This document shows, piece by piece, positions 26,343-32,985 of a DNA stretch of 64,000 nucleotides. Under the pieces are notes generated by a model, which was not told the origin of the DNA, did not search any database, and worked only from the letters and a program-made list of their open reading frames with translations. The stretch spans positions 480,001-544,000 of the forward strand of contig CM000154.2 of assembly GCA_000004695.1 (NCBI GenBank), in the 5' to 3' direction. The stretch comes from Dictyostelium discoideum (Eukaryota). The position numbers were made by a program, and so were the translations under genes. Position 1 is the first letter of the stretch, and each line of letters starts with the position of its first letter.

Positions 26343-28648
26343 ATGAAATATTTATTAGTATATTTACACATATTACTATTTTGTTTATTAAAGATCAATA
26401 GCCAAAAGTATTGCACTTATAGTGGTGTTGGAGAAGATTATAATATCAAATTTGATGTCTTACAAACATAGTATGTAATTTTTTTTTTTTTTCTTTCTCT
26501 TCTTTTTTTTTTTTTTTTTTTTTTAAAAAAAAAACCTAATTATTTTTTTTTCTTAAACGTTCAAACAGTGGTGTTGGTTTTCATTACTCATATTTAAGTG
26601 TTATTTTTACAACTTGTAATTATACTATTCCTTGTGGTAGTAATAGTAATAATGTATTGTGTGGATCATATTCAATTGTTCCACGCAAGTATCTTTCATT
26701 GGGATTTGTTAATGGCAGTACACATAGTTATAGCAAAGACGGACTAATGATAACATATATATCACAGGATACAACAAATGATAATGATTGCAAAAGATAT
26801 ACAACAAATGTGATTTTTCAATGTAGACCAGATGGTGATGTATCCGATTCATTAGATGTTGGCATCGACAATATACTTATTGATTCATGTATTGTTGAAT
26901 TCACACTCTCTTCACGTACAGTGTGTCAAACATGTCCAAACTGTTTAAAAACACATCAAACATCATGTAATGTGAAAAGTGGTTGGTGTACTTGTGATGG
27001 TAATACAAAAGGTTTAAATTGTGATCAATTAAATGCAAATATATCATCGGTATTAACACCAACAATTAGTGGTGGTGATGTTATAATGTCTGGTGATTTT
27101 TCAAATATTTATAATATTAGCTCAAGTATTACAATTTCAATTGGTACTTCAATTTGTAATAGTGTTATTTTCTCAAGTAATAAATCACAAATCAAATGTA
27201 CGATAGGTGCAGGTGAAGGTGATCAACAAATTAAATTATCAGATGGAAATGGTGCAACATTAATATATGATGGATTTTATTATAGAGCTCCTTGTTCAGT
27301 CGAATGTTCACCATTTGGTAAATGTAATGATCACGTTGGTAATTGTATTTGTAATGATGTTGCAATTGGTACAGATTGTAAAACTTTAAATTTACAATTA
27401 GATTCAGTAACACCAACATTTGTAACTGGTGGTCAAGTTTATTTAAATGGTAATTTCCTAAATGTCAAAGATCTTAGTCTAACTATTAAAATCGGTGATA
27501 TAGAATGTTCAGATGTTAAATTCAACGATACTAATTTCAAAGTTTTGCAATGTATAATTCGAAAAGGTGAAGGTATTAAAGATATTATAATATCATCAGG
27601 TTTGCTATCATTTTCAAAAGCAAAAGCATTCGAATATCAATACTACAAATGTCCACTCAATTGTTCAACACCAAATGGTACTTGTGATAATAATACTGGT
27701 AATTGTACATGCCATAATGAACATTTTGGTAATTCTTGTGAATTTACTCGATGTCCACTCGATTGTTCGACACCAAATGGTACTTGTGATAATAATACTG
27801 GTAATTGTACATGCCATAATGAACATTTTGGTAATGGTTGTGAATTTACTCGATGTCCACTCAATTGTTCGACACCAAATGGTACTTGTGATAATAATAC
27901 TGGTAATTGTACATGCCATAATGAACATTTTGGTAATGGTTGTGAATTTACTCGATGTCCACTCGATTGTTCGACACCAAATGGTACTTGTGATAATAAT
28001 ACTGGTAATTGTACATGCCATAATGAACATTTTGGTAATGGTTGTGAATTCACTCAATGCCCACTCTATTGTTCAACACCAAATGGTACTTGTGATATTA
28101 ATAGTGGTATTTGTACATGTGATAATGAACATATTGGTAATGGTTGCGAAATTAAATTTATTGAATGTAAACATAAATGTTCAACCAAACATGGAATATG
28201 TGATAATGATAGTGGTAATTGTAAATGTGATACTCAAACAAAAGGATTAACGTGTGAAGAATCAAGATTATTAATTGAATCATTAGACTCAATCAATTCA
28301 AAAGGTGGTACAATAAATATAATTGGTTATTTTGGAAATACAACATCATTATTAACAATTAAAATTGGTGAATCACAATGTAAAAATATCAAAGTATTCA
28401 ATGAAACAACATTAAAATGTGATATTGGTGAAGGTAAAGGTATTCATAATATTACAATCATTGATGATGACCTTTCGTTCACAGCAATCAATAAGTTCCA
28501 ATATCTCGATGAAAAAACAAAAATCTCAAAAATATCGAGAGGTGCAATTGCTGGTATTGTTGTTGGTTGTGTTGTTGCTGTTTCATTAATTGGTTCTATT
28601 GCTTTTTATTATCATCACAAAAATAAAAAGGTTAATCTTTTCTTCTAA
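26343..28648 (+). CDS. Cell-surface protein with tandem EGF-like/Cys-rich repeats, IPT/TIG-like segments and a C-terminal TM anchor; 2 exons at 26343..26470 (signal peptide) and 26569..28648
   Basis: Exon 1 gives MKYLLVYLHILLFCLLKINSQKYCTYSGVGEDYNIKFDVLQT in phase 2 with donor GTATGT at 26471. The TCAAACAG acceptor at 26567/68 continues (Y)GVGFHYSYLSVIFTTCNYTIPCGSNSNNVLCGSYSIVPRKY.... The repeat unit C(P/Q)L(N/D)CSTPNGTCDNNTGNCTCHNEHFGNGCEFTR occurs 5-6 times, and the hydrophobic stretch AIAGIVVGCVVAVSLIGSIAFYY is followed by a basic tail. Track ORF 26657 starts at a TTG. Confidence 0.7.
27650..28057 (+). repeat. Four near-identical (about 97-99%) 102-bp tandem repeats (34 codons each) inside the EGF-like gene, followed by 2 degenerate units to about 28260
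   Basis: Units start at 27650, 27752, 27854 and 27956 and differ by 1-5 nt. The antisense and out-of-frame track ORFs at 27643..28057 and 27675..28250 are reflections of this periodicity. Confidence 0.9.
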
Positions 28649-29378
28649 AAACTAAAATAAAATTTAACCATTATGGTTTTTTATTACAATAATTAAAATT
28701 TCCCAATTATTTTTGATATTTTTCTTTTTTTTTTTTTCTTCCAACTATTGAAAGAGTTATCTAATAATTCAATCTCATTAATTAAAGAATAGAGTCTTAT
28801 TACACATTAATTTTCATTTAATCTATTTTTTTTATTTTTATTTGTTTTTTTAGTTGATTGACCAAAATTCGAACCAAGGTCTGGGATTTCATTGGGAGTG
28901 AGATACAAAAAAAGCTGTGAAAACTTATCCAATTTTTTCCTTTTTTCATTCAATTTTTATAAATGTAAAGATAATTTTCCATTGTCCAATTATCCTTAAA
29001 TTTTTAAAAAAATTATCCGGATGAGGTAAAACACTAAAAAATAGAGTTCCATTTTAGTAAAAAAAAAAAAAAAAAAATTAATTGATATTCTTTATATAAA
29101 AAAAAAAAAATAAAAAAAATGCTCACCTTGATTCTGGCATTAATTTTGGGTTTAAAATCTTCTCCAACACTTCTATAAGCACAATACTTATAAATCCGAC
29201 TATTGGTTGTTAATAAAAAAAATAGTTGTATAAATAAAATAATATTCCATTTTTATTAAGGTGATATTTTATTTTTTTATTTTTGTTGTATTTTTTTTAT
29301 AATTTGATTAAATAAAAAAAAAAAAAAGATTTAAAATAAAAAAAAAATAAAAAAAGATTTAAAATAATTTGCCTCTGG

Positions 29379-29470
29379 ACCTATCAGGAATAATTGAATT
29401 AATTTTTACTAACTTAACATTTTTTAAAAAGATAGAGCTGTTGGGAATAAATTGATTTATTTCGAAAAAT

Positions 29471-29508
<38 letters not shown>

Positions 29509-29645
29509 AAATACAAGATTTAAAACAAAAATTTAAAATAATATTTAAATATTTTTAAAGACCTTTTGTAGAATTATATTTAGTATGTAATTATCGAAAT
29601 ATGAACTTCAAAAATTCATATGAATATCAAAATAATTCACTTTTT
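29379..29645 (+). mobile_element. Copy B of repeat family 2 (5' direct repeat of the composite locus 29.4-31.7 kb)
   Basis: TGGACCTATCAGGAATAATTGAATTAATTTT...(T)38 AATAAAATACAAGATTTAAAACAAAAATTTAAAATAATATTTAAA...AGACCTTTTGTAGAATTATATTTAGTATGTAATTATCGAAATATGAACTTCAAAAA. It aligns with copy C over about 260 bp. Confidence 0.5.
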
Positions 29646-30059
29646 TTTTAAAAAAAAAAAATATTTTAAAAATTCTTTTTTGTGGGGAATAAAAAAAAAA
29701 AAAAAGAAAATATGATTCTGTTCGAAGTTTTCAAAAAGAAGAAAAAAAATAAAATAAAATAAAAAACAATTAAAACTTTTAACCAATCATTTAGATGTAA
29801 GTTGTTTTTTTTAAATAAATAATTTGTGAAAAATAAAAAATTAGGTGTTTTGGATAGTAAAAAAAAATAAAAAAAATAAAAAAAACATGTCGCCCCAAAA
29901 AAAAAAAAAGGGGGAGGGGCAGTAAAAAAGGGGTAGTTTCCCCATACAAATCCAAAACACCTTTTTTTTGACACCTAAATTTTTATTATTCACATTTATC
30001 AATTTTTACCAATTTTTTTCTTTTTTTTTTTTTTTTTTCAGCCATATTGGTTTGTTGGG

Positions 30060-30900
30060 CGTAGTAGAAGTAGTTGTTGTTTTTAATATTAATTATATAT
30101 AAGGTGTTATAGGTTTCATATGAACAGTAAATTTTATATCATAGTTTGGAATACTTTTAATCTTCAAAAAATTAGAACATAAGTATCAGTATTTACTCCA
30201 GCTGCTGTACAACCTGAAAATACTACCAATATCACAAATGTACAACACTAGCAAATACAACATCAACAACAACACCACCACCGCCACTACCACCACCATT
30301 TTACCAAGACACTCAACAACTAATAAATTGGAAACTCAAATACAACCCCCCCCAAATAGATTAGATAATGGGGCTCCAAATACTATATCCACAGCAATTG
30401 GTGGGAATGGCTAACCTCTGTTATTGTTCCAGAAACTAGTTTACCACCAGAGAATTCTGAGTTTGAAACTTGTTAAGAAAGTGAAAAAGGTGGTGCTATG
30501 GTTACTGTTTCCTCTCATAAAGAATTCGATGCTTGATACATGCGCCTTCTCAAGCCCTATTATTCCAATCAATAATTTTGCCGTTGGTGCTTTATTGACC
30601 AGCACTGGTCACTGTAGAATTGCAATGTTGTTGGTTTCTATTACCACTATGGTAATGGAACTCCACTCTAGAGATCAAAGTGGTGATGATAATTTCCTTT
30701 TGATTTCAACTCGTGTATGTGCTGATGAAAAACGTTACCTTTATCCTGGTTGTACCGATGCCATGTTGGTGGTCCGTCGAGGTCAAGTCAAACCATTTAT
30801 ACCATTTTAAATATTGATTTGAATCAAAAATCACCAATTTATTTATTAAGTATTGGTAATTAAATAAAGTAGTAGTAGTAGTTCGAGCGGACCAACAAAT
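30060..30900. other. GC-richer (about 40%) island with no intact ORF on either strand; a candidate degraded mobile-element interior or non-coding locus
   Basis: Composition differs sharply from the surrounding 15-20% GC DNA. The only ORFs are short and in different frames (the longest is 30424..30810, 128 aa, with no recognisable motif). Internal CCCCCCC and CAACAACAACACCACCACCGCCACTACCACCACC tracts are present, and GTAGTAG(A)AGTAGTT-like direct motifs sit near both ends (30058 and 30866). Confidence 0.4.
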
Positions 30901-30904
30901 TTAA

Positions 30905-31078
30905 ATAAAAAAATCCTCTGTGTATCTTTCAAATAATTTTGGTTTTTTTTTTTAATGTTTTTTTTTTTTTATTTTATATGGGACATAATTCTTTAAAATT
31001 TATCAATCTAAATAAACCCAAAATGATTTTTAAATTCACCAATTTTAAAAACTATTAAGATACACAGTGGATTTTTCT
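30905..31078. repeat. Roughly 170-bp element bounded by about 35-bp imperfect terminal inverted repeats (hairpin/MITE-like)
   Basis: The left arm is AAAAAAATCCTCTGTGTATCTTTCAAATAATTTTGGT (30905-30941) and the right arm is ACCAATTTTAAAAACTATTAAGATACACAGTGGATTTTTC (31039-31078). The reverse complement of the right arm, GAAAAATCCACTGTGTATCTTAATAGTTTTTAAAATTGGT, matches at the 14/16 core ATCC(T/A)CTGTGTATCTT. Confidence 0.5.
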
Positions 31079-31425
31079 TTGTAAATAGGAAAAAAAAGTG
31101 ATGACATACAAAGGGAGTAAAAAAAAAAATGGTTTTTAAAAATCAACCTCCAATGAAAGATAAAAGCCAAAAAAAAAAAAAAAAAAAAAAAAATTAAAAG
31201 AATATACTCGTTGTGTGCTTGTCAATAAATTATAAAAAAAAGTGTGTTTTTAGCAATAAAAAAAAAAGAAAATAATAAAAGTTATACAGAAAATAACCAA
31301 TCCAGTTTTTTAAAAAATTATAATTATTGCATTATTATTTATTTTATTTATAATTTTTCCTTTTTTTTTTTTTTTAAAAACTCGCCAACGATCAGTGTCG
31401 CTACAAAATAATAAACTTAAAATTG

Positions 31426-31695
31426 AACCTATCAGTGAATAATTGAATTATTTATAATTAACTCATCATTTTTTTAAAAAATCAAATTATCCCTGAATAA
31501 ATTCAGTTATTTCAAAAAAAGTTTTTTTTTTTTTTTCAATAAAATGCGTGATTTAAAACAAAAATTTTAAATAATATTAAACAATATTAGTTAAGACCTA
31601 TTGTAGAATTAAATTTGGTATGTAGTTATTGAGAAATAGAGAAAATATAAAAAAATGAACTTCGAAAAAAAAAGGAACTTCAAAAAAAAAAAAAC
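31426..31695 (+). mobile_element. Copy C of repeat family 2 (3' direct repeat of the composite locus)
   Basis: TGAACCTATCAGTGAATAATTGAATTATTT...TTATCCCTGAATAAATTCAGTTATTTCAAAAAAAG(T)18 CAATAAAATGCGTGATTTAAAACAAAAATTTTAAATAATATTAAAC...AGACCTATTGTAGAATTAAATTTGGTATGTAGTTATTGAGAAATAG...GAACTTCGAAAAAAAAAGGAACTTCAAAAA. Confidence 0.5.
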
Positions 31696-32194
31696 TACAT
31701 AAAAAATAAATCCTTTTCTGAGTCCTGGTATTTCTGATTTTTTTTTTTGTAAATCATACTTTTATTTTATTTTATTTTTTTTATATTTTTTATTATAATT
31801 GAATAAAAAAAAAAATTTAAAAAAAAAAAAATGAAAATTTTTTTTAGAGAAAAGATTACTCGACCTTTTTTAAAATATGAAGAGTTAATTATAAATAATT
31901 AAATTATCAACTTGTAAAAAATAAAAAAATATAAAAATTTTAAATCAAATTAAATAAATCATAAAAAAATATTATAGGAAAATTTCGCAAAAAGGTTCTT
32001 GATTTTCTGGGTACTTTCAGGCTTTTTTATTCTTTGAAAAAAAAAAAATTAAAAAAAAAAAATTAAAAAAAAAAAAAAGTTTGCAAATATAAAATCAACA
32101 TTTTGGTGCGATAATAAAAAAAAAAATTATAATAATAATTAAATAAATAAATAAATAAAAATAAAAAATATTATTAAAAAAAAAAAAAAAAAAA

Positions 32195-32404
32195 ATGTTT
32201 GATTATTTTTTCGGTAGTAAAACAGAAAACAAAAAATTAAAAGTAAATCAGGTTTTAAAAAAATACAAAGATTTATATGCAATAACAATTGAAAATGTTT
32301 TTACAAAAGAAGAATGTGAAGAATTAATTAGATTATCAGAAGAAAAAGGATATGAACCTGCATTGGTAGTATGTAAAAAATTTAAAATTTTTTATTAAAT
32401 AAAA

Positions 32405-32446
<42 letters not shown>

Positions 32447-32985
32447 CAGAATACCGGAAATGGTCAACAAGAATTAATGACAGATGTAAGAAATAATGAT
32501 AGATGCATAATAGATACAGAAGAATTATCAAATAAAATTTATGAGAGAATTAAGGAATTTATCCCACAAGATTTTAGAGGTCACAAAGTTGTATCATTAA
32601 ATGAAAGATTACGTTTTCTTCGTTATTATCCAGGTCAAGAATTTAAAGCACATTTCGATGGTTCATATGAAAGAACTGAAGGTCCAAAGGCAGGTGAAAG
32701 ATCACATATCACATGTCAATTATATTTAAATGATGTTGAAAAAGGTGGTGAGACAACATTCTTTGTTGGCCCAAATCAAGAAGAAATTAAAGTCAATCCT
32801 TCAACTGGTATGTAGTAAATAATTGTAAAAAAAAAAAAAAAAAAAATTAGAAAAATTAATTATTAATATTTATTTATTATAAAGGAATGATAATTTTATT
32901 TCAACACAGAATTTTACACCAAGGTTCACCAGTAGTTTCTGGTGTAAAATACGTAATTCGTTCTGATGTTATGTATAATAGTTAA
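32195..32985 (+). CDS. 2-oxoglutarate/Fe(II)-dependent oxygenase (prolyl 4-hydroxylase-like, PKHD-type); 3 exons at 32195..32368, 32450..32807 and 32885..32985, about 210 aa
   Basis: Exon 1 ends ..EPALV|GTATGT (phase 0). The (T)40CAG acceptor at 32448/49 continues NTGNGQQELMTDVRNNDRCIID...YPGQEFKAHFDGSY (the HxD iron-binding motif) ...GGETTFFVGPNQEEIKVNPST. The donor G|GTATGT at 32808 and a TTATAAAG acceptor at 32883/84 give GMIILFQHRILHQGSPVVSGVKYVIRSDVMYNS* (the second His and the RxS 2OG-binding motif). Using the later CACAG acceptor gives an immediate stop and loses the conserved His. Confidence 0.75.

Follow-up and report, generated by a model that had tools for sequence, protein, structure and literature searches.

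The closest described relatives of the locus analyzed here are the hdaC-type class II histone deacetylases (HDACs) of dictyostelids, represented by the Polysphondylium violaceum 'Histone deacetylase domain-containing protein' (KAF2071005.1; P0003), the Tieghemostelium lacteum 'hdaC, FYVE-type zinc finger-containing protein' (KYR00611.1; P0005), and a third protein, P0006, whose sequence closely resembles both. The Pfam family PF00850 is found at residues 919–1250 of the P. violaceum protein (E=4e-73). Within such domains, RPPGHHA holds the catalytic histidine pair, DxDxH the metal ligands, GFD the third zinc ligand, and EGGY the tyrosine. Like hdaC (KAF2071005.1, KYR00611.1), a GC-rich intergenic island of Dictyostelium discoideum is collinear with ~235 residues of the catalytic domain, a relationship seen also in the DNA, and it retains the hdaC motifs ETSLPPENSExET, INNxAxGA, RIAxV-F--H-GNGT, SGDDNFLxIS, KRYxYPG, and ILNIxL. 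Unlike hdaC, the island lacks the N-terminal zinc-finger region and the C-terminal third of the domain, and it carries frame changes, a stop, a mutated DFDVHH, and two deletions (43 and 14 codons). We conclude, with a probability of about 0.9, that it is a non-functional fragment of the catalytic domain of a dictyostelid hdaC-type class II HDAC.

Two other kinds of described sequence invite comparison. The island resembles pseudogenes mis-annotated as 'hypothetical protein' in having an apparently chance ORF with neither a natural homologue nor a domain and with the codon usage of the parent, and it differs from the usual examples in its well-kept GC content and in the 15-nt direct repeats at its edges. 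With processed pseudogenes generated by non-LTR machinery, the island shares an intergenic position and may share flanking direct repeats (15 nt); unlike these, it has no poly(A) tail and derives from the middle of a coding sequence rather than its 3′ end. The corresponding region is intron-free (a single exon) in the P. violaceum gene, so the intron test usually applied to processed copies is uninformative here.

The island lies on chromosome 5 of D. discoideum AX4, which presumably does not carry hdaC or hdaD, within the 64-kb window (the whole stretch of DNA that was analyzed). It is intergenic and sits in a 3.8-kb AT-rich spacer (28648–32477) bordered by two genes on the plus strand, an EGF/TIG-domain gene that ends at 28648 on the 5′ side and a 2OG-Fe(II) oxygenase gene with an exon start at 32477 on the 3′ side. 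Other ORFs in the surroundings are typical of the species and include a RasGAP protein, a ComC-like protein, an FNIP-repeat protein, and an ABC transporter. Neutral DNA of D. discoideum is ~15–18% GC. The description of the island as GC-rich in an earlier, sequence-only reading is borne out by measurement, with 38.4% GC at 30160–30810 vs. 18.0% and 17.4% in the 1-kb bins on the two sides, and both composition and codon structure cut off sharply at the island edges. That reading had left the choice between a transposon interior, a captured fragment, and a structured non-coding RNA, of which the captured fragment comes closest to the present interpretation. The island is bracketed by two mutually unrelated inverted repeats with fold z-scores of −3.3 to −4.5, one at 29843–29855/29950–29962 (13/13) on one side and one at 30908–30928/31057–31076 (11 bp exact, ~20/21 when extended by eye). 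A scan for bacterial-type promoters and terminators is uninformative in this eukaryote. The features within the island are as follows:

30120–30301, plus strand: 5′ part of the island, ~180 bp, with an ATG at 30120 and coding-like codon usage.
30302–30431, plus strand: weaker, collinear upstream extension of the HDAC-derived segment, YSDRVDIFNNPPEVD...YIRKL vs. YQDTQQLINWKLKYNPPQID... in the alignment to P0006, with one more frame change near 30377.
30346–30353, plus strand: C8 homopolymer within the weakly homologous upstream part, encoding the PP of NPPQID.
30432–30750, plus strand: pseudogene core, ETSLPPENSE...KRYxYPG, corresponding to P0003 residues 971–1131, with four frame changes.
30474–30476, plus strand: in-frame TAA in the best-conserved block, ETSLPPENSEFETC*ESEKGGAMVTVSSHKE.
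30529–30810, plus strand: annotated ORF DDB_G0287669, 93 aa, 100% identical to P0001, 'hypothetical protein DDB_G0287669 [Dictyostelium discoideum AX4]'.
30633–30662, plus strand: relic of the metal-binding motif, DFDVHHGNGT in the orthologues and GFYYHYGNGT here, in a frame that differs from that of the annotated ORF.
30751–30874, plus strand: weaker, collinear downstream extension, NILNIGLKRNSxSSxFxQxW-xKKII vs. TILNIDL--NQKSPIFIKYW*LNKVV, with two more frame changes.

Stops interrupt all six frames of the island, in agreement with the sequence-only reading, and the longest ORF is indeed the 128-aa frame at 30424–30810, which starts with TTG under table 11; its ATG-initiated portion is the 93 aa at 30529–30810. 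A log-odds profile of codon usage, trained on six long ORFs from the same window, revealed a coding-like signal confined to the plus strand, where the best frame switches at least four times across the island. The summed codon score of the plus strand was 45.6, whereas shuffles gave −30.1±17.6 (maximum 8.0) and the minus strand scored −25.9. The short ORFs that had seemed shifted relative to each other are pieces of one reading frame. Along the ancestral HDAC frames, GC content at the first, second, and third codon positions is 0.43, 0.38, and 0.28, respectively, a coding signature that goes back to the parent and did not evolve anew. A His/Pro-rich stretch noted earlier is present at 30273–30299, as is the reported run of C residues, although this run is eight and not seven nucleotides long; homopolymer runs of this kind are prone to indels.

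Joining the frames by codon usage alone, when no family was yet suspected, yielded a 232-residue composite translation, which was searched with phmmer against all 1.84 billion representative proteins. Three of its matches, to P0003 (E=2.3e-8), P0005 (E=1.0e-4), and P0006 (E=1.5e-4), are all HDACs, and the remaining matches were DDB_G0287669 itself, a synthetic 61-aa sequence (P0002), and a repeat protein (P0004). The last of these, a 1737-aa bacterial protein (E=5e-6), was rejected as a homologue because each repeat contributes only ~30 bits at 29–31% identity in Thr/Pro-rich sequence, and the total is inflated by five repeats. A word-index homologue search with the same composite returned the annotated ORF itself as its sole match.

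Further comparisons converge on the same family. Two tblastn blocks were recovered in different frames, the first aligning ETSLPPENSEFETC*ESEKGGAMVTVSSHKE with ETSLPPENSEYETHLESDQTGAMVTVASHKD (74% identity over 31 aa, in one frame) and the second covering INNFAVGA...SGDDNFLLISTRVCADEKRYLYPG (44% over 68 aa, in another frame). Our own implementation of a frameshift-aware dynamic-programming alignment, controlled with 40 dinucleotide shuffles, gave a score of 188, ~44 standard deviations above the shuffles (32.6±3.5, maximum 43), with a score of 36 for the reverse strand. When an HMM built from the three orthologous domains was run against the six-frame translation of the 64 kb, the only matches were at 30432–30536 and 30562–30756, which lie in different frames and at collinear profile positions; a broader HDAC profile, built from every retrieved sequence, gave no match on the island. 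At the DNA level, 30664–30749 aligns with the P. violaceum gene at 76% identity (blastn, 87 nt). The robust core, 30432–30750, aligns collinearly with the deacetylase domain of hdaC-type class II HDACs from dictyostelids.

A repaired translation, whose frames had been picked with the help of the HDAC alignment, matches PF00850 with E=1.5e-4 and 21.7 bits, below the gathering score of 27.9 bits, and is ~50% identical to the orthologues. Among solved structures, its closest relative was an acetylpolyamine amidohydrolase (E=0.0037). The motifs INNxAxGA, RIAVV-F--H-GNGT, SGDDNFLxIS-VC-D-KRYxYPG, and ILNIxL can be read across the joined frames. The earlier statement that the longest ORF has no recognizable motif thus holds for single frames, and Pfam assigned no family to any single-frame ORF of the island, but HDAC motifs become readable once the frames are joined.

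Beyond the core, homology was evaluated with a restricted test in which only the expected neighboring residues of the homologue were compared. For the upstream extension, shuffles scored at least as high as observed in 0 of 300 cases with P0006, 4 of 300 with P0005, and 43 of 300 with P0003; for the downstream extension, the corresponding counts were 3 of 300 with P0003, 9 of 300 with P0006, and 25 of 300 with P0005. The extensions to 30302 and 30874 did not reach significance in unrestricted searches. With both included, the predicted HDAC-derived length amounts to ~0.57 kb (30302–30874), preceded on its 5′ side by ~180 bp of coding-like sequence. This 5′ part (30120–30301) has a TAA at 30180–30182, as judged from the frame profile and translations, and low-complexity triplet repeats encoding Thr, Asn, Pro, His, and Gln at 30250–30300. 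No homology was found between it and the HDAC region upstream of the domain (161–280 of 300 shuffles scored at least as high as observed), tblastn, alignment, and HMM comparisons found no HDAC homology in 30100–30310 or in the flanks, and the database searches gave no credible match of any kind to 30120–30301, surfacing only the rejected bacterial repeat protein.

Decay of the fragment is extensive. The alignment path contains about seven frame changes, near 30377, 30528, 30566, 30625, 30663, 30760, and 30840, in addition to the in-frame TAA. One deletion removes 43 codons in the DDETVYDTF...YTRA region, and a second, of 14 codons (RPPGHHAGRYGRT..), takes out the catalytic RPPGHHA. The GFD and EGGY regions fall past the end of the fragment, where the C-terminal third of the domain is absent. 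Judged by similarity, the island belongs with PF00850; judged by an uninterrupted frame and by catalytic and zinc-binding residues, it is not a functional member of the family and would be unable to encode an enzyme. Collinear homology and disabling mutations are both present, as expected of a pseudogene of an hdaC-type gene, and the island is probably inert today. The sequence-only reading had foreseen two deflationary outcomes. The first, a trivial frameshifted relic, is what was found, although the parent is a host class II HDAC family and not a transposon ORF. The second, a missed spliced gene, was rejected: the frame breaks are shifts of 1–2 nt inside GC-rich sequence and not AT-rich introns, and deletion or mutation has affected the catalytic motifs.

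The HDAC-derived segment would have arrived as a fragment rather than as a full gene that decayed in place, possibly through reverse transcription or through ectopic insertion at a break under repair. Insertion of a fragment is favored because the spacer is too short for the whole gene, no other HDAC piece accompanies it, and its edges are abrupt. Whether such an insertion left a trace can be considered from the two ends of the GC-rich block:

30061–30075, plus strand: left 15-nt direct motif, GTAGTAGAAGTAGTT, with TTTGTTGGGC just before it (30051–30060).
30869–30883, plus strand: right 15-nt direct motif, GTAGTAGTAGTAGTT, followed by CGAGCGGACCAACAAA.

Direct motifs had been reported at both ends and do exist, but as 15-mers and not 18-mers. 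Their consensus, GTAGTAG[A/T]AGTAGTT, has only two matches in 64 kb, one at each edge of the GC-rich block, where dinucleotide shuffles predict 0. Either a target-site duplication or simple triplet repeats may account for the motifs. A 12-nt segment at 30888–30899 is an inverted match to TTTGTTGG of the left end but is not significant, since 6 of 100 shuffles gave at least two matches; inverted 8–12-mer ends were considered as terminal inverted repeats and rejected as not significant.

If the 15-mers are a target-site duplication, the insert would span 30076–30868, and a mobile element or retrotransposon machinery may have carried the fragment to this site, an origin that is compatible with our main interpretation and that we regard as unlikely. 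The exact placement of the only two copies at the block edges and the sharp compositional boundaries point in this direction, and the non-LTR elements of Dictyostelium generate duplications of similar length. However, the motif is itself a simple triplet repeat (GTA/GTT), for which dinucleotide shuffles give too low a chance frequency, and HDAC homology may extend into the right copy (...LNKVV). No poly(A) tail precedes the right repeat, and the fragment comes from within the HDAC coding sequence instead of from its 3′ end. No transposase or reverse transcriptase was found, the inverted TTTGTTGG ends are non-significant, and no second copy of the island was detected in the window or, at the protein level, in databases.

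That the island is the last recognizable piece of a third class II HDAC paralogue, once full-length, that died in place (a unitary pseudogene) is improbable. An amino-acid identity of ~50% to the orthologues does fit a long independent history. Against this, the P. violaceum hdaC-type gene spans 5 kb, more than the 3.8-kb spacer at 28648–32477 could hold; tblastn and HMM searches found no other HDAC-like segment in the flanks or in the rest of the 64 kb; and GC content and codon structure end abruptly on both sides of the island, with no fading. For our main interpretation, the retention of 38% GC despite ~50% identity to the orthologues is mildly odd and a little surprising if the fragment is an old neutral relic. 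The true parent may be a more divergent paralogue, in which case the copy may be young.

We assign only a small chance to the possibility that the fragment is not inert, whether as a regulator of the parental deacetylase, as a new micro-protein, or as an unusual non-LTR retro-copy of an internal mRNA piece. A more specific proposal, in which transcription of the island yields a non-coding RNA derived from the pseudogene, such as antisense transcripts or small RNAs directed against the mRNA of the parental HDAC, is very unlikely. It would account for the kept GC content, as both GC and codon-position structure are retained, and the minus strand has a fold z-score of −4.85, with 0 of 20 shuffles as good. 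This fold, however, consists of the (GTA/GTT)n of both ends paired with the (CAA/CCA/CTA)n at 30250–30300, and because dinucleotide shuffles destroy triplet repeats, the minus-strand z-score is overstated; the plus strand, with a z-score of −1.24, does not fold better than its shuffles. The structured RNA entertained earlier found no counterpart in Rfam: the covariance-model scan that had been suggested as a check returned no family at the gathering score, and the faint resemblance to SRP RNA was dropped, with nothing at the gathering score in the 64 kb. The best result of a permissive Rfam scan of 29000–32000 was snoR99 (E=0.12, 28.5 vs. 41 bits).

The interior of a recognizable transposon was likewise rejected. 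Protein searches found HDACs and no transposase, integrase, or reverse transcriptase, no second copy was present in the window or among proteins, and the inverted ends were non-significant; tRNA genes, sought as a hint of TRE elements, were absent from the 64-kb window.

These results bear directly on the annotated ORF. DDB_G0287669 shares the ancestral HDAC frame only over ~30568–30626 and 30664–30761, about half its length, and its protein therefore combines deacetylase sequence read in frame with deacetylase sequence read out of frame. We judge it to be a chance ORF. That it could be a real small coding gene of 93 aa, arisen from the wreck of the HDAC fragment, is extremely unlikely, even though its ATG-to-TAA frame at 30529–30810 is intact, its codon usage is like that of D. 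discoideum, it is present in the reference proteome annotation, and it is identical in six short-read assemblies (Logan contigs) from other samples. The codon signal is inherited from the parent, part of the ORF is out-of-frame HDAC sequence, no Pfam family was found in it, and no natural homologue was detected among the 1.84 billion representatives, where the sole other match was P0002, a recoded synthetic copy of the ORF. The six contigs, which span 29846–30972, have homopolymer runs at their ends, and may be either transcript or genomic assemblies, are near-identical over the whole locus and therefore uninformative on constraint.

The synthetic copy is an observation of its own. P0002 (L007; 61 aa) comes from an assembly of Serratia marcescens, where its contig is 211 bp long, and corresponds to recoded residues 1–46 of DDB_G0287669, flanked by adaptor-like GGATCC and CTCGAG sites. 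It is 57% GC, and 28 of its 36 differences fall at third codon positions. These features suggest that a synthetic peptide-tile oligonucleotide contaminated the Serratia assembly.

The island is thus an ordinary, disabled, single-copy gene fragment that has been mis-annotated as coding. The main value of this result lies in annotation, and no new biological question is raised by it: the label of DDB_G0287669 should change from hypothetical protein to HDAC-derived pseudogene fragment. The spurious protein has already entered UniProt-type resources and a synthetic peptide-tile library. The genome of D. discoideum is extremely AT-rich and has a very low mutation rate, and in it the island provides one datable case of the scattering and decay of gene fragments.

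The island, a GC-rich block read as a decayed class II histone deacetylase (HDAC) gene fragment, carries short repeats at its edges and lies between two inverted repeats, as listed below together with the part of the island that has a counterpart in a bacterial assembly.

29843-29962: perfect 13-bp inverted repeat, AGGTGTTTTGGAT / ATCCAAAACACCT, ~94 nt between arms
30061-30075 and 30869-30883: (GTA/GTT)n 15-mers, one per island edge
30529-30666: counterpart of a 211-bp contig, VKXA01000653.1 (Serratia marcescens assembly GCA_010597745.1)
30908-31076: inverted repeat, AAAAATCCTCTGTGTATCTT / AAGATACACAGTGGATTTTT, directly downstream of the island, ~128 nt of AT-rich sequence between arms

The left inverted repeat is positioned ~90 bp upstream of the island and encloses CGCCCC-A13-GGGGGAGGGGC as well as a mini-hairpin, GGGGTAGTTTCCCC. 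Folded as RNA, either strand gives a z-score of about -3.4, and the hairpin matched no Rfam family. The right repeat, with arms of 11 bp exact by script and ~20/21 after extension by eye, has fold z-scores of -3.4 (plus strand) and -4.5 (minus strand). The two hairpins are unrelated in sequence. Minus-strand RNA of the island itself reaches a fold z-score of -4.85, because the edge (GTA/GTT)n 15-mers are complementary to, and pair with, a low-complexity (CAA/CCA/CTA)n run inside the island (30250-30300). This fold signal is probably a triplet-repeat effect, but both 15-mers sit precisely on the island edges. Further upstream, EGF-like units of the form CPL[ND]CSTPNGTCDNNTGNCTCHNEHFGNGCEFT[RQ] follow one another almost unchanged in the EGF/TIG-domain gene (27643-28250), with such regularity that other frames and the opposite strand also hold long ORFs (136, 130 and 191 aa).

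Six Logan contigs, short-read assemblies of other samples, showed no differences from the window across the HDAC-derived part. At 30821, all six carry C where the window has G, and a T run near 30025 is one T shorter in the four contigs that span it (4/4). The FNIP-repeat gene of the window is also present in a second chromosome-scale D. discoideum assembly (GCA_054883475.1, CM142511.1, 5.29 Mb).

The Serratia contig encodes a "Serratia hypothetical protein" (WP_204282251.1) that copies residues 1-46 of DDB_G0287669, the annotated 93-aa ORF inside the island, with recoded codons. This copy has a GC content of 57%, third codon positions account for 28 of its 36 nucleotide differences from the window, and adaptor-like sites flank it (GGATCC on one side, CTCGAG on the other). 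It has the appearance of a synthetic peptide-tile oligonucleotide contaminating the bacterial assembly; DDB_G0287669 itself is judged a spurious ORF.
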